The notes under the pieces were generated by a model that was not told the origin of the DNA, did no database searches, and saw nothing but the letters and a program-made list of their open reading frames with translations. The position numbers and the translations under genes were made by a program. DNA of 64,000 nucleotides from a virus, in the IMG/VR virus record IMGVR_UViG_3300044692_000050, positions 1 through 64,000 of that record, one strand, 5' to 3'. Shown here in pieces: positions 56,545 through 64,000 of this stretch (position 1 is the first letter of the stretch; each line of letters starts with the position of its first letter).

Positions 56545-56982
56545 ATGGGAGTTAAAGGGGCGGTCCCGAAGCGGACCGACCAGCTGCACGGCCACCGGAA
56601 GCCCCCGGCGACAGATAAGGCCCCGACTCCGCCCGGGGCGGCGTCGTACCGGCGCCCGGCGGCTGACAGCACGTGGCATCCGCTGGCGAAACGCTGGTGG
56701 AACGCCCTGAGCAAGTCGGGGCAGTCCACGTGGTACCAGCCGTCTGACTGGGAGCACGCCTACATCTGGGCGGAGATGCTGTCGCGGCAGCTGTTCTCAG
56801 CCAAGCCGTCTTCGATGATGCTGGCAGCATGGGATGCGGCATCGGTCCGGCTGCTGGTGACCGAGGGAGACCGTCGCAGGATGCGCATCGAGCTCGACAA
56901 GGGCGGCGAGGTCGATGCGGATAAGGAAGCCGCTGTAGCGAGCATGCAGGCGTGGCGTGCCAACCGCGCTAGCGGTTCCTGA
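56545..56982 (+). CDS. terS: Terminase small subunit
   Basis: GAVPKR...WHPLAKRWW..L..SGQ...YQPSDW...LLVTEGDRRRMRIEL; precedes terL. Confidence 0.85.
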   Translation: MGVKGAVPKRTDQLHGHRKPPATDKAPTPPGAASYRRPAADSTWHPLAKRWWNALSKSGQSTWYQPSDWEHAYIWAEMLSRQLFSAKPSSMMLAAWDAASVRLLVTEGDRRRMRIELDKGGEVDADKEAAVASMQAWRANRASGS

Positions 56983-58705
56983 CCGCCGCCTTCCTGCGCC
57001 GGCTGACCGGCTGATCACGCTCCCCGCGGGCGAACCTGAGCTGACGCTCGGCTGGCATGCGATCGTGTGGGCCGGGACGTACCTGAAGCACCCGAACGGG
57101 ATCCGGGCGGGGCTGCCGTGGAAGTACACCGACAGCCAGCGCGCTTTCGTTCTGTGGTGGTACGCGATCCACCCGGACGGCCGGTGGGTCTACCAGCACG
57201 GAGTGCGCCGCCGCAGCAAGGGCACTGGCAAGAGCCCGGGTGCGGCGACTCTGTCGCTGACGGAGCTGCTGGCGCCTGTCCGGTTCGCGGGGCTGGCCGA
57301 TACGGACGTGCCGTACCTGGAGGGGAACGGCAGGAACGGCCTCCCCGCCGGGTGGGTGCAGATCGGCCGGGTGATCGGCAAGCCGGTGGCGATGCCGCTA
57401 GTGCAGATCGCGGGTGTGTCCGAGGCCGCGACGGCGAACACGATGCGTCACGTCCGGGCGATGACGGCGAAGAACTCCAAGGTCGTCCAGGCGTACCACC
57501 TTGATCCGGGCAAGACGGTGATCTACACGCCGTCAGGCGGCCAGCTCGAGGTGATCACGTCGTCGGCGGCTTCGGCTGAGGGGGCCGAGGTGACCGCGGC
57601 GTTCCTCGACGAGCCGGAGCACTGGACGCCCGCGTCAGGCGGGGTTGAGCTCGCCGCGACGATCGACCGCAACCTGGCCAAGTCGGGGTCCCGGGCGATC
57701 GAGACGGCGAACGCGTGGGAGCCGGGCGCGGGGTCGGTGGCTGAGGCGACGTTCGAGGCGTGGTGCGCGCAGGAAGAAGGCCGCACGAAGTCAGGCGCGC
57801 TGATCCTGTACGACGCCGTGGTCGCGCCCCCGGACACGGACCTGGCCGACGAGGAGTCGCTGCGCAAGGGGATCGCGTTCGCCTATGACGACTCGGACTG
57901 GGTTGACCAGCAGGTCATCATGGACCGCATCCTGTCGCTGCGGACCAAGCCGGACGAGGCGCGGCGGTTCTACCTCAACCAGCCGGTGGCCAGCGCCGAT
58001 TCGTGGGTGACGCCGCAGGAATGGGCGGTCCTCGCCGATCCGACACAGGTCATCTGCGATGGCGATGAGATCGTAGCGTTCTTCGACGGCTCATCCAGCC
58101 GGGACGCGACGGCCTTGATTGCCTGCCATGTCGAGACGGGCTATGTGTTCACGGTCGACATATGGGAGCCGGAGCCGGGCCCGTCGCATTCTCCGGGAGC
58201 GGCCCGCATCCCGGTCGCCGAGGTCGACGCTGCGGTTGAGCGGATGTTCGACCGGTGGCAGGTCTGCGCGTTCTTCGCTGACGTGAAGGAATGGGAGTCC
58301 TTCGTCAAGGTGACCTGGCCGGAGCGGTACGCGGAGCAGCTAGAGCTCCACTCGGTGCCGTCGGGCAAGGACCCGCAGGCCATCGCCTGGGACATGCGGA
58401 CGCACACCTACGAATTCACGCTGGCCGCCGAGCTCACCTTGACGGAGATCACGGGCGACACCGGGCCCGCGTTCCGTCATGACGGGGATTCGCGGCTAGG
58501 TCGGCATGTGGTCAACGCCCGGCGGCATCCGAATCGGTGGGGCGTCTCGATCGCCAAGGAATCGAAGGATTCGCCAAAGAAGATCGACGCGGCTGTCTGC
58601 ATGATCGGGGCGCGGCTAGCACGCAGGCTGCTGCTGGCCGAGCGCGCTAAGCAGCAGCAGAAGGCGAAGAAGCCCAGGTCAGGTAGGGTTCACGGCTTCG
58701 CTTAG
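56957..58705 (+). CDS. terL: Terminase large subunit
   Basis: Walker A RRSKGTGKS; LDEPEHW; RRFYLNQ; FFDGS...DATAL; KKIDAAV. Confidence 0.95.
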   Translation: MPTALAVPDRRLPAPADRLITLPAGEPELTLGWHAIVWAGTYLKHPNGIRAGLPWKYTDSQRAFVLWWYAIHPDGRWVYQHGVRRRSKGTGKSPGAATLSLTELLAPVRFAGLADTDVPYLEGNGRNGLPAGWVQIGRVIGKPVAMPLVQIAGVSEAATANTMRHVRAMTAKNSKVVQAYHLDPGKTVIYTPSGGQLEVITSSAASAEGAEVTAAFLDEPEHWTPASGGVELAATIDRNLAKSGSRAIETANAWEPGAGSVAEATFEAWCAQEEGRTKSGALILYDAVVAPPDTDLADEESLRKGIAFAYDDSDWVDQQVIMDRILSLRTKPDEARRFYLNQPVASADSWVTPQEWAVLADPTQVICDGDEIVAFFDGSSSRDATALIACHVETGYVFTVDIWEPEPGPSHSPGAARIPVAEVDAAVERMFDRWQVCAFFADVKEWESFVKVTWPERYAEQLELHSVPSGKDPQAIAWDMRTHTYEFTLAAELTLTEITGDTGPAFRHDGDSRLGRHVVNARRHPNRWGVSIAKESKDSPKKIDAAVCMIGARLARRLLLAERAKQQQKAKKPRSGRVHGFA

Positions 58706-59033: not shown

Positions 59034-60551
59034 ATGGCGCTCTCCCCCGACCAGGTGCCGGACGTGGCGACCCGCGTCCTCGCGATGCGGGAACGGGAGC
59101 AGTACCGCCTCCGTCGCATCAGTGACTACATGCGCGGCAAGCACGCGTCCGTTTACGTCCCCAACGGGGCCCGGTCGGAGTACAGGTGGCTCCTCGAACG
59201 GTCCGTGGTCAACTTCCTGCCCCTGGTCGTCAGCGTCATCAGCCAGAATCTCCACGTAGACGGGTATCTCCCCGTCCACGTAGACGGAGACGCCGCCGAT
59301 TCAACGACGACAGGATCCAGCTCCCCTGAGAAGGATCCCGCCAACCCGTGGTCGATCTGGCTGGCCAACCGGATGAACGCCCGCCAGCACGGGTTGCACC
59401 GCGCGGTCGTCAAATACGGCGTGGCCTACACAGTGGTGCTGCCGGGCGACCCGCAGCCGGTGATGCGGCCGGTGTCCCCGCGACGCATGACCGCGCTGTA
59501 CGCCGACGACGTAGATGATGAATGGCCCGTGTACGCCGTCGAAGAACGCGTGATCCGCAACGACAAGGGCGCGATCAGGCAGATCTGGTTCTACGACGAC
59601 AACTGCCGGTACACCCTCGTCGGCAAGGAGAATGACCCGCGCCTTTACTGGCCGGATGACAGCAGTCTCCTCGGTTCCGGATGGGAGGGCGTCCCGTCCG
59701 GGGAACCGATGATCGAGGAACACGGCCTCGGCGTGTGCCCGGTCGTGCGCTTTCTCCATGACGTGGACCTTGACGGCGAGATGGACGTCTCCGGCGAGGT
59801 CGAGCCCCTGATTCCTTTGCAGGATCAGGTAAATACAACCACTTTTAATACCCTGATGGCGCAACAATATGCGGCATTCAGGCAGCGGTGGGTCACCGGA
59901 ATGGTCCCGGATGATGAGGACGGCCGACCCCGCGAGCCGTTCCGCGCGGGGGTTGACAGGCTATTCGTCGCGGAAGACACGGACACTAAATTCGGTGAAT
60001 TCGGCGAGACCAGCCTTAACCCTTTCCTGGACGCGCGGGAAGCGTCGATAAGGCACATGTCAACCGTCGCGCAGGTGCCCCCTTATCATCTTTTGGGACA
60101 AATGATAAACTTGAGCGCCGAAGCGCTCGCTGCTAGTAAAGACGGAATGGACCGGAAATGTCAGGAGCTTGAGTCCGTCCTTTCTGAGCCCCATAAGCAG
60201 AATCTTCGCCTAGGTGGACTGGCGGCCGGCAACAAAGCGGCGTGGGAGGACACCACCTCCACCATCGCCTGGCGCGACACTTCTGCTCGCGCGTTCGCCG
60301 CGACCGCCGACGCCCTCGGCAAGGTCGCCCAGATGCTAGGCGTGCCGGCTACGGAACTCTGGTCGCGCATCCCTGGCGTCAGCGCCGAGGAGGTCGCGCG
60401 CTGGAAAGAAGTCGCCTCCAGGCAGGGCCCGCTTAACGAACTCAACCGGCTCCTTGAGGCCCAGATGACGCACGGAGTGCAGACTCAGGGGCCGCCGACA
60501 GAGGCTGAACCATTCCAGGCTCCCGCTTTGGGGAGGACCAAGGGGGTCTAA
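59034..60551 (+). CDS. Portal protein (SPP1 gp6-like)
   Basis: Position after terL; N...VV...L.VDGY, HGLGVCPVV.F, AAFRQRW, NLSAEAL, WRD. Confidence 0.93.
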   Translation: MALSPDQVPDVATRVLAMREREQYRLRRISDYMRGKHASVYVPNGARSEYRWLLERSVVNFLPLVVSVISQNLHVDGYLPVHVDGDAADSTTTGSSSPEKDPANPWSIWLANRMNARQHGLHRAVVKYGVAYTVVLPGDPQPVMRPVSPRRMTALYADDVDDEWPVYAVEERVIRNDKGAIRQIWFYDDNCRYTLVGKENDPRLYWPDDSSLLGSGWEGVPSGEPMIEEHGLGVCPVVRFLHDVDLDGEMDVSGEVEPLIPLQDQVNTTTFNTLMAQQYAAFRQRWVTGMVPDDEDGRPREPFRAGVDRLFVAEDTDTKFGEFGETSLNPFLDAREASIRHMSTVAQVPPYHLLGQMINLSAEALAASKDGMDRKCQELESVLSEPHKQNLRLGGLAAGNKAAWEDTTSTIAWRDTSARAFAATADALGKVAQMLGVPATELWSRIPGVSAEEVARWKEVASRQGPLNELNRLLEAQMTHGVQTQGPPTEAEPFQAPALGRTKGV

Positions 60552-61149: not shown

Positions 61150-62007
61150 ATGGGGCAGCCCACGCCGCCACCCAGCACGCCGCAGCCGGTAGTGACGGGC
61201 GGCGCGATCGTCGCCGGCGGTTCCCTGGCTCTCACAACGTCGGCCACCCTGGCCGCTCAGGCCGCCCTGGCGGCGTCCTTCTACCAGTCCCAGGCGTTCC
61301 TCGCCGCGATGGCCACGAGGGACATCCTGACCGTCTGGCGGCAACTGAACCTGCGTGACGTCCGGTCGTCGTGGCCCGCGCTGCGCACCGCCCTGGCCGC
61401 GCTGATCCGTGACCGGTACTCGCAGGCGTCGGCGCTCGGGCAGGCGTACTACGGGCAGGCGAGGCAGGCCGCGGGGGTTCCGGGCGAGCCGCCGAGGGTG
61501 CATGTCCCGCCGCCGCCCGAGCCGCAGATCACAGCCACCCTGGACTCAACGGGCCCGTGGAACCTGCTCGGGAAAATCAAGCAGGGCCAGCAGCTAGCCA
61601 CGGCGAACGAGAACACGGCGGTACAGCTGGCCGGGTCGGCGCAGCGGCTGATCACGAACGGTGCCCGTCAGGCGGTCATGCGATCGGTGGCGGCCGATGA
61701 CAAGGCCGTGGCCTGGGCTCGTGTCACGTCGGCGAACCCGTGCGCGTTCTGTGCCCTTCTGGCAGGGCGCGGCGCTGTGTACAGGTCGGAGAAATCAGCC
61801 AGTTTCGACGCCCACAACCACGACCAGTGTGTAGCCATGCCCCTGTTCTCGCATGAAGAGGCGCAGGCCACCAAGGACAACCCGCTGTATGACCAGTGGA
61901 AGCGGGTCACCAAGGGTCATGGCGGCGCTGAGGCACTGAAGGTGTGGCGGCGTCACTGGGACGCGCAGCAGAACCGCGACGGCGTGAAGGTTCTGCCAGC
62001 CGCCTAG
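61150..62007 (+). CDS. Head maturation / MuF-like protein
   Basis: WARVT...PCAFC.LLAGRG.VY...AHNHDQC; between portal and scaffold. Confidence 0.85.
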   Translation: MGQPTPPPSTPQPVVTGGAIVAGGSLALTTSATLAAQAALAASFYQSQAFLAAMATRDILTVWRQLNLRDVRSSWPALRTALAALIRDRYSQASALGQAYYGQARQAAGVPGEPPRVHVPPPPEPQITATLDSTGPWNLLGKIKQGQQLATANENTAVQLAGSAQRLITNGARQAVMRSVAADDKAVAWARVTSANPCAFCALLAGRGAVYRSEKSASFDAHNHDQCVAMPLFSHEEAQATKDNPLYDQWKRVTKGHGGAEALKVWRRHWDAQQNRDGVKVLPAA

Positions 62008-62303
62008 ACGAGTAGCCAGATCACCGCCGCGGTCAGTGCAACGAGGCTGATCCCGAAGGCCCTGGCCAGCCAGAGCCGGAGACGCCACCGCCTCTCTTTG
62101 GCTGGTGCTTGCAGCGCTGAGAGCTCGGCGCATGTGGCGCACATGCCGCCGCCCGGCTGGACTGTCTGGTCGGGCGTGCCGCATTCCGAGCAGGTCCGTA
62201 TCCGGAGCTCGTCTTCAAGAGGAACCCATCTCGCCGGGTGGTCGGGGTCACCGCTGCAGGCGTGAGGTTCCGCTGGTTGCCCGCACACGCACATATCAGC
62301 CAC
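62004..62303 (-). CDS. Antisense Zn-finger protein with C-terminal TM
   Basis: CVCG..H, CSEC..CATC, hydrophobic tail. Confidence 0.5.
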   Translation of the reverse strand: MADMCVCGQPAEPHACSGDPDHPARWVPLEDELRIRTCSECGTPDQTVQPGGGMCATCAELSALQAPAKERRWRLRLWLARAFGISLVALTAAVIWLLV

Positions 62304-62469
62304 GGCCGACCGCGATCTTGCAGGTGCGGATGAACGGGCAGGTCTCGTCCATGACGCAGGTGTCGGCGGCGTAGCAGTCGCTGGCTTCGGCGCGGGCTAG
62401 TTCGCTGCCGAAGTAGGCATCGAGTTCGGCTTCCATGCGCGCGAACGCGTCTTCGCCCGTTTCGTCCAT
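62296..62469 (-). CDS. Small antisense Cys-containing ORF (leaderless)
   Basis: TAAGCT-N6-ATG; MDETGEDAFARMEAELDAYF...C....C....CPF..C. Confidence 0.55.
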   Translation of the reverse strand: MDETGEDAFARMEAELDAYFGSELARAEASDCYAADTCVMDETCPFIRTCKIAVGRG

Positions 62470-62497
62470 AACCCCAGCTTAAGGCGGGTGTGGCGCG

Positions 62498-62869
62498 GTG
62501 GCCGGTTACGGCTCGTCCATCCAGCGCTCACCCGGTACCGACCCGCTTGTCCCGCAGCCTATGAAGGGGGCCAGGATGGCACAGCCCGACGCGGCGACGA
62601 TGCGGAAGCTCCAGGCGCAGGGCAAGGCCATGCGGAACGCCAACGGTGACCCGAGCTACCAGATCCGCAACGCCGACGACCTGGACAACGCGATCCGCGC
62701 TGTCGGCCGGGTGAAGCCGCGTCCGGGTGAGACCAAGGAAGAGGCCATGGCTCGTGTCAGGCGCTGGATCATGTCCCGCGCCAAGGCGATTGGCCTGTCC
62801 AGCCGCATCCCTGACACCTGGGATTCGTCGGGGAACCTCAAGGACGACAACGACGGCGACGAGAACTAA
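62498..62869 (+). CDS. Head-associated small protein (DUF6582-like) with capsid-like N-terminal peptide; alternative start 62577
   Basis: GKAM...SYQIRN..DL.NAI.AVGR...VRRWI..RAKAIG....IP.TW. Confidence 0.7.
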   Translation: MAGYGSSIQRSPGTDPLVPQPMKGARMAQPDAATMRKLQAQGKAMRNANGDPSYQIRNADDLDNAIRAVGRVKPRPGETKEEAMARVRRWIMSRAKAIGLSSRIPDTWDSSGNLKDDNDGDEN

Positions 62870-62947: not shown

Positions 62948-63649
62948 ATGTCAGAAGACGCCGCGGGAGCACAGGACGCCGGAACGGCCCCTGAGACCGC
63001 ACAGCAGACCCAGCAGGACGGCAACCCGCTGTTCCGCACCACGGAGACCGTTAAGGGCCGCACGGGGGCGCAGAACGGCGCTCAGGGCGACGACAAGGAC
63101 GCGGCGGCCGTGCTCGCCGACGCCACGGCCGACGGCCAGGACGAGGATCCGCTCGCCAAGGCCCAGGCCGAGATCGCCCGGTGGAAGCAGCAGGCCCGCG
63201 AGAACGAGCGCCGCGCCAAGGCCAACGCCGACAAGGCCAAGCAGTTCGACGCGTACGAAGAGAGCCAGAAGACCGAGCAGCAGAAGCTCGCCGACCAGCT
63301 CGCCGCCGCCCAGGAAGAGGCGCGCAAGGAGCGGGGCTCGAGGCTCAGGCTGCTCGCCGCCGCCCAGTACGACCTCGACCCGAGTCTTATCGACTACCTC
63401 GGCGACGGCGACGAAGACGCCATCAACGAGCGTGCCGAGGCATTCGCGCGGGCCATCAACGAGAAGGCCGCCGTCCTCGCCGCCGCTCAGGTCCAGGCCG
63501 CCCAGCAGGCCGCCGCGGCACAACAGCAGCCCCGCGCCAACGGCTTCGGCCGGCCCGTAGAGGCCCTCCGCCCCGGCGCCCTGCCCGCCACGGACAACCG
63601 CACCAACGACCCCAACGCCTGGATCCGCCAGGCCCTCGGCCGCAAGTAA
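62948..63649 (+). CDS. Scaffolding protein
   Basis: Acidic N-terminus, WK..AR.NE.RAK.N, KTEQQK coiled coil; precedes capsid. Confidence 0.88.
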   Translation: MSEDAAGAQDAGTAPETAQQTQQDGNPLFRTTETVKGRTGAQNGAQGDDKDAAAVLADATADGQDEDPLAKAQAEIARWKQQARENERRAKANADKAKQFDAYEESQKTEQQKLADQLAAAQEEARKERGSRLRLLAAAQYDLDPSLIDYLGDGDEDAINERAEAFARAINEKAAVLAAAQVQAAQQAAAAQQQPRANGFGRPVEALRPGALPATDNRTNDPNAWIRQALGRK

Positions 63650-63706: not shown

Positions 63707-64000
63707 ATGCCCGACTACACCGACATGATCGCCCGCAACAGCGGCGGGACTGACGCCCTCGTCCCCGAACCGCTCGCGCTGGAGATCATCCAGGAGCTGC
63801 CCAAGAAGTCCGCTGCGCTGTCCCTCATGAAGCGCGTCAACATGTCCACCAAGACCGAGCGCATGCCGGTCCTGGACGTGCTGCCGCTGGCCTACTTCGT
63901 CAACGGCGACACCGGCCTCAAGCAGACGACCACGCAGGCGTGGAAGAACGTCACGCTCGTCGTGGAAGAAATTGCAACAATTGTTCCAGTGCCCGAAAGT
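63707..64000 (+). CDS. Major capsid protein (5' part, truncated by window)
   Basis: GAAAGGA RBS; MPDYTDMIARNSGGTDALVPEPLALEII...RMPVLDVLPLAYFVNGDTGLKQTT...EEIATIVPVPE. Confidence 0.9.
   Translation, partial: MPDYTDMIARNSGGTDALVPEPLALEIIQELPKKSAALSLMKRVNMSTKTERMPVLDVLPLAYFVNGDTGLKQTTTQAWKNVTLVVEEIATIVPVPES

Follow-up and report, generated by a model that had tools for sequence, protein, structure and literature searches.

The window analysed here is a stretch of 64,000 nucleotides of viral DNA, taken from a record of 102,340 bases with a G+C content of 68.6%, which is 98% complete according to CheckV. The phage is an actinomycete phage. On the plus strand the genes of the head module are arranged in the order terminase, portal, PHROG 6439 protein, VG15/Mu-F-like protein, a small gene, scaffold and capsid (Table 1). 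In most relatives the VG15/Mu-F-like gene lies directly upstream of the small gene. A prohead protease of the S78 or ClpP type was not found in the 98%-complete genome.

Table 1. Features of the head module and of the small gene in the window.
Feature	Position	Strand	Remarks
Large terminase	56957-58705	+	
SPP1-type portal	59034-60551	+	
Small PHROG 6439 protein	between portal and VG15/Mu-F-like gene	+	
VG15/Mu-F-like minor head protein	61150..62007	+	PF25310, E 5e-35
Two small ORFs between VG15-like and small gene	62004-62303, 62296-62469	minus	
Shine-Dalgarno-like stretch ahead of GTG 62498	62481..62490	+	weak to moderate, by duplex energy
Long isoform (tag, linker and core)	62498..62869	+	123 aa; open frame; homologues called at this length with ATG starts
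Tag	62498..62566	+	23 codons copying the tip of the N-arm of the major capsid protein
Basic linker, codons K-G-A-R, doubling as ribosome-binding site	62563..62575	+	-11.5 kcal/mol
Core gene, short isoform	62576..62869	+	97 aa, small helical domain; public gene call P0002
Scaffolding protein, candidate partner of the tag	62948..63649	+	DUF4355 below the Pfam cut-off; PHROG scaffold matches
Capsid N-arm tip	63707..63775	+	residues 1-22
HK97-fold major capsid gene, 5' part	63707..64000	+	PF05065, TIGR01554; continues to 64702 beyond the window

Two small open reading frames lie on the opposite strand ahead of the small gene. For the first of these, homologues of 55% identity were found at the same place and also on the minus strand in three related phages (L091:1652-1942, L092:3131-3421 and L093:1183-1416), and it is therefore a conserved antisense gene within the head module and not noise. 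The second has no homologue among the related loci.

Among actinophage capsids, the capsid protein falls into the Bobi/Muddy family, and its closest solved relative is the capsid of Muddy (8EDU, E 6e-87; bioRxiv 10.1101/2022.09.09.507160). In the AF2 model of the capsid monomer the N-arm helix spans residues 23-40, and residues 1-22 ahead of it are disordered. A search of the PDB using the first 42 residues returned designed repeat proteins and a TAL effector only, which were taken as chance matches. Within the scaffolding protein, the C-terminal ~35 residues are conserved across the group of related phages.

A copy of the capsid N-terminus at the start of the small gene

The reading frame of the small gene can be extended upstream of the called start to a GTG at 62498. 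This GTG opens a frame of 123 codons, so that the extension is in frame with the core, as the initial annotation had it. Codons 1-23 of this frame were reported there to resemble the start of the capsid protein at 63707, and the alignment is reproduced with 11 of 23 positions and one gap. The pattern of this tag can be written as Y-x3-I-x-R-x2-G-T-D-P-L-V-P-Q-P.

The significance of this likeness was assessed in several ways. Among 2291 pieces from the six-frame translation of the 102-kb genome, the piece containing the capsid start is the top local-alignment match of the extension with a score of 48, the runner-up reaching 39. None of 20000 shuffles attained the pairwise score of the extension and the capsid piece. 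Furthermore, a profile of the capsid N-terminus, built from 20 other phages and leaving out the capsid of the window, matches in the six-frame genome only the capsid start (E 4e-12) and the extension (E 6.2e-7), with the third-ranked match at E 0.37. The likeness of the extension and the capsid start is thus real and beyond chance. On the DNA level, a comparison of the two stretches starting at 62498 and 63707 revealed no likeness, which places the similarity at the level of the protein.

The similarity ends with the tag. Neither the N-arm helix nor the HK97 fold comes after it; a basic linker and a small helical domain are present instead, and the long protein gave no match to capsid families. 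The small protein mimics the N-arm tip only and is not itself a capsid protein. Judged by the structural model, the tag covers exactly the flexible tip of the capsid N-arm.

In the capsid proteins the motif is widespread at the N-terminus, being present in 108 of 120 homologues. Many of these homologues have a length of 390-495 aa with the motif still N-terminal (P0168, P0170, P0179, P0184, P0201 and others), which means that the extra length is internal or C-terminal; possibly, it is a decoration or display domain. In a prophage of an Actinomycetota MAG (L001:5383-6358) the capsid gene matches in three pieces in different frames and is probably broken.

Two probable starts and the core domain

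The internal ATG of the small gene, placed at 62577 in the initial annotation, actually occupies positions 62576-62578 and is codon 27 of the long frame. The public gene call picked this internal ATG (P0002), and callers often took it despite the presence of the extension, as observed for the window (P0002) and for L006 to L008. Both starts are preceded by a putative ribosome-binding site. Ahead of the GTG, the Shine-Dalgarno-like stretch forms a duplex with the 3' end of the 16S rRNA of -10.3 kcal/mol, where the 5th percentile of the genome is -9.7, and this stretch is also kept in L016. Ahead of the ATG, the linker itself contains the sequence GAAGGGG at a distance of 6 nt. A purine-rich, Shine-Dalgarno-like linker is found ahead of the internal start in 11 of 11 extension-bearing loci, and in relatives in which tag and core are split into two genes the equivalent stretch closes the first gene right before the ATG of the core. 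Among 39 tagged homologues the residue at the core start is Met in 36 and Val in three; the single Val that was read from DNA is encoded by a GTG codon. Because the internal start and its ribosome-binding site have been kept in this way, it is probable that a tagged product starting at GTG 62498 as well as an untagged product starting at ATG 62576 are made.

The core had been described as DUF6582-like. This was not borne out, since no Pfam match was obtained for the protein of the window at E<=0.01 or for 58 family members at E<=1, and no family in Pfam, PHROGs or NCBIfam covers the small protein. AF2 predicts helices at residues 59-71 and 80-98 with a pLDDT of about 88, and a disordered tag with a pLDDT of 52-59, to which the monomer model gives no placement. 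Fold searches with the model of the small protein gave no assignment for the core, all Foldseek matches lying at E above 0.01 and the best one in BFVD, where only uncharacterised homologues were retrieved, at E 0.03. A PDB-wide fold search gave Z values up to 4.7 for a common helical arrangement and nothing clear, and a search of PDB sequences with the profile of the small-protein family retrieved eL32 alone (E about 0.3), taken as chance.

In distant phages, the core domain is located inside or at the end of ClpP-type prohead proteases and Mu-F proteins (L034, L041, L047, L050 and L032). This places the core among the internal head proteins and suggests, on the basis of these gene arrangements, that the stand-alone small gene was split off from a protease- or Mu-F-type protein. 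In the Streptomyces phage KimJongPhill (L065:3122-4309), genes 10 (Mu-F-like) and 11 (untagged small gene) share a reading frame, with a single stop codon and 24 bases between them, a near-fused arrangement. Some homologues of the core further possess an acidic motif, D-P-D-G-D-G-D...T-D-H-x-H/Y-W, with a weak DUF7211 match. It stands after the core in some homologues and before the core in the fused forms (carriers are P0009, P0043, P0046 and P0050 as well as L034, L043, L047 and L048).

Conservation of the extension

The initial annotation left two readings of the extension, a mimic of the capsid N-arm or a fossil of a displaced capsid gene start, and for the latter an extension that is absent or frame-broken in relatives was envisaged. 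Instead, at least 38 of 117 homologues as called retain the extension without a frame break, several of them with ATG starts, and this holds down to 55% identity. In 11 loci read from DNA, dN/dS amounts to 0.34 for the extension in comparison to 0.26 for the core, and at the invariant codons of the tag synonymous change is free. These substitution patterns show that the extension is under purifying selection, and it appears to be translated.

The conserved positions are informative as well. Across 39 homologues the tag is invariant or nearly so at Y4, R10, G13, D15, P16, L17, V18 and P21, and every invariant residue is intact in the tag of the window. In 87 capsid proteins the constrained positions are Y4, R10, D16, L18, V19, P20 and P22, of which R10, D16, L18 and P20 are invariant. 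The constrained positions Y4, R10, D15, L17, V18 and P21 of the tag match those constrained in the capsid family.

The tagged form occurs in no isolated phage within a collection of 50,697 records. Gene product 11 of KimJongPhill is an untagged homologue, and the capsid N-terminus of this phage differs. JacoRen57 has a related capsid start, and the second copy is absent.

The tag as a portable module

In the nearest relatives of the phage (L091-L093, with capsid proteins 80-82% identical, L094 and L013) the motif is found in a separate mini-gene of about 45-60 codons. The stop of this mini-gene overlaps or abuts the ATG of the core gene in the form TGATG, TAATG, TAA-ATG or TGA-ACC-ATG. The mini-gene and core gene of these relatives represent the split form of the gene that is fused in the window. 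In L013:1253-1435 and L094:76-531 the mini-gene has an extra basic tail, and in L094 and P0244 to P0246 it also has a Cys-rich leader, which shares its DNA with the end of the VG15-like gene but is read in a different frame. Motif-bearing mini-genes are also located elsewhere in the head module, namely between portal and VG15 (L026, L015) and ahead of the portal (L069).

A length-limited search yielded 39 proteins that carry the tag, and an exhaustive profile search of 1.84 billion representatives yielded 65. Five long repeat proteins from the exhaustive search (P0279, P0284, P0299, P0315 and P0325) do not contain the motif and were set aside, as was L097, which has the second half of the motif only and is probably a chance match. 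The carriers are nearly all 35-144 aa long, and their N-terminal parts are unrelated, being acidic or Cys/His-rich. Some mini-proteins consist of little more than the tag with an acidic leader and a short basic tail, without an obvious cargo, which would suit an address tag and an assembly regulator equally. About eight methyltransferase-like proteins of 194-255 aa end in the capsid-tip motif (L087:2976-3575, L089:2991-3572, L106, L107, L108, L109, L111 and L113); their matches to Pfam Methyltransf_25/31 lie below the cut-off. In L087 and L089 the methyltransferase-like gene is close to an amidase-like gene, and in G001 it is about 13 kb away from the capsid gene.

The capsid protein and the small protein of the window have the motif at the N-terminus; in most other carriers it is found at the C-terminus or within a few residues of it. 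A binding mode that depends on a free N-terminus is therefore not compatible with this distribution. The tag is a portable module present on otherwise unrelated proteins.

Linkage of the tag to the capsid protein

The tag and the capsid motif occur together. In all eight sufficiently long records that were found via the tag alone (G001, G003 to G007 and the contigs of L107/L132 and L118/L133), a Bobi/Muddy-family capsid protein starting with the motif is encoded as well. In a tree of the capsid proteins from which the motif was left out, 10 of 13 members of clade B versus none of 7 members of clade A have a second copy, and the second-copy clade is well supported; the phages in this, the preceding and the following comparison are related and thus phylogenetically non-independent. 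The tags are closer to the capsid tip of their own phage than to those of others (permutation p = 0.005, n = 14, kinship ignored), and they are about equally similar to the capsid tips of clades A and B. The tag may well have begun as a duplicated 5' end of the capsid gene.

A proposed docking tag for co-assembly

Taken together, the reading that we consider reasonably probable is that the tag serves as a docking or address tag, which mimics the tip of the capsid N-arm and allows co-assembly into the procapsid. Here, the long form of the small gene product would carry a short linear peptide copying the flexible N-arm tip, and this peptide would bind whatever the N-arm tip of the capsid protein binds during assembly. 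Binding would then bring the attached protein into the procapsid. Candidate partners are the scaffolding protein with its C-terminal ~35 residues, a neighbouring capsid subunit or another component. The gene probably delivers two products, a tagged long form and an untagged short form. Physical binding, the nature of the partner, incorporation into the particle and the use of both starts are what we infer.

Several observations are in line with a docking function. The tag and the capsid tip are predicted to be disordered on their own, as docking peptides are, and the position of the core among internal head proteins counts for this reading as well. A published parallel for what an N-arm tip binds comes from phage SPP1. 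In procapsid I, the N-terminus of the capsid protein gp13 binds the scaffold, and after release of the scaffold the N-arm extends, with Y3, I10 and P12 contacting the next capsomer (PMC6813328). The head module of SPP1 is similar to the one described here, with an SPP1-type portal, a Mu-F-like protein, a separate scaffold and an HK97-fold capsid protein. The SPP1 N-terminus has Y..I and D-x-[IL]-V-P-E in common with the motif, a likeness that is short and was judged by eye. We know of no second copy of the N-arm tip on another protein in SPP1.

The closest precedents are two further systems in which terminal peptides direct proteins into a capsid or shell. [quoted passage not shown] The carriers described here are diverse as well, and the tag is the sole part they share. 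In contrast to the tag, which is mostly C-terminal, the T4 sequence stands at the N-terminus, attaches to the scaffolding core and is removed by the prohead protease, a protein whose S78/ClpP-type representatives were not detected in this genome. A further difference is that the tag copies the N-arm tip of the capsid protein of the phage itself. To our knowledge, it has not been reported that the T4 sequence is a copy of a capsid N-arm tip.

The second system is represented by the cargo-loading peptides of encapsulins, in which 10-20 terminal residues direct unrelated cargo into an HK97-fold shell as it self-assembles (PMC11664910). The length, the disorder and the terminal position of the tag match these peptides. 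By contrast, the present system is a tailed phage with a terminase, an SPP1-type portal and a scaffold near the capsid gene, and the tag is homologous to a part of the shell protein, a feature that does not belong to the descriptions of encapsulin peptides.

Alternative explanations

The first alternative is a shared recognition signal, through which one processing enzyme or chaperone of host or phage would recognise both the capsid protein and its tagged counterparts and act on them. A precedent exists in the staphylococcal phage 80alpha, whose capsid and scaffold proteins carry one common N-terminal motif that is cleaved off by the host protease Prp; this motif mimics the ribosomal protein L27 and is cleaved by a protease of the Firmicutes host (PMC5744158). 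As in the phage studied here, one terminal peptide is common to the major capsid protein and another head protein, and the 80alpha motif is also found on non-homologous proteins (PMC5744158). The portability and the conservation of the tag would fit such a signal equally well. However, the motif described here mimics the N-arm tip, is often C-terminal and lacks an L27-like F|A site as cleaved by Prp. It overlaps the part of the N-arm that is included in the family profiles, TIGR01554 starting from residue 12 and Pfam from residue 17, and so gives the impression of a structural element that stays in the mature protein rather than a removable propeptide. In most carriers it is located at the extreme C-terminus, where cleavage after the motif releases nothing, and no candidate protease of the S78/ClpP type is available in this nearly complete genome. 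A recognition signal is considered unlikely.

Ranking behind it, and unlikely too, is a role as assembly regulator. The peptide would compete with the N-arm tips and cap contacts of scaffold or capsomers without bringing in any cargo, and would in this way time or shape assembly, expansion or capsid size. The mini-proteins of 35-60 aa, which are close to the tag alone with short charged flanks, would suit this role, as would the translational coupling of the mini-gene to a gene of the head module and the contacts between capsomers that the N-arm tips of SPP1 make following scaffold release (PMC6813328). Nevertheless, the tag also ends methyltransferase-like proteins (194-255 aa) and many Cys/His-rich proteins encoded outside the head module, and this is the pattern expected for cargo and not for a dedicated regulator. 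Furthermore, a competing peptide produced in large amounts should disrupt assembly.

Quite improbable is a motif that binds some host protein with no part in assembly, or that distracts a host sensor of the capsid N-terminus. In general, diverse small phage proteins can bind host factors through short conserved peptides at their termini, and nothing specific to this case was found. Against it, the motif is an element of the N-arm tip conserved across the HK97-fold capsid family, it resembles the N-arm tip of SPP1 with its known lattice contacts, and the tag of the window is located in the head module.

Finally, module exchange could have left behind a capsid gene start that is untranslated or no longer functions, so that translation begins at ATG 62576 only. 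Such a fossil would agree with the public gene call at the internal ATG (P0002), with the only moderate ribosome-binding site ahead of GTG 62498 and with a possible origin from a duplicated capsid 5' end, but it is highly improbable and was rejected as the present state, as the extension preserves its reading frame among homologues of as little as 55% identity, many with ATG starts, shows purifying selection with synonymous turnover, keeps in the window all invariant residues including those invariant in the capsid, and has independent, functional-looking copies elsewhere. Of the two readings offered initially, the N-arm mimic is consequently the one that fits the findings, with a portable module that co-occurs with the capsid motif and with docking as its inferred part, whereas the fossil does not agree with a selected, in-frame extension.

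Implications for the Bobi/Muddy-type actinomycete phages

The observation made in the window is confirmed and proves to be one case of a wider pattern, for which docking is the best supported, still unproven reading of the sequences. How minor or internal head proteins are chosen is understood in few tailed phages beyond T4, P22 and P1. A portable peptide copied from the tip of the N-arm in the phage's own capsid protein would, if true, be a simple and previously undescribed rule.

The docking reading makes two predictions: the tag alone would load a reporter into procapsids, and the six residues Y4, R10, D15, L17, V18 and P21 would be essential. Such a tag might also be put to use for bringing chosen proteins into HK97-type capsids. 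If one of the alternatives is right, the motif would still represent a new conserved family tied to capsid assembly.

More tentatively, and with less confidence than is given to docking itself, Bobi/Muddy-type actinomycete phages may use a cargo-loading system in which a copy of the capsid N-arm tip serves as the label, the gene of the window being this label fused to a head protein. If this is true, the head would take up dozens of fast-evolving small proteins together with a methyltransferase-like enzyme and might deliver them along with the DNA, counter-defence being one conceivable role. Small unannotated proteins and the methyltransferase-like enzyme would then become likely cargo of the virions across a large group of actinophages from soil.
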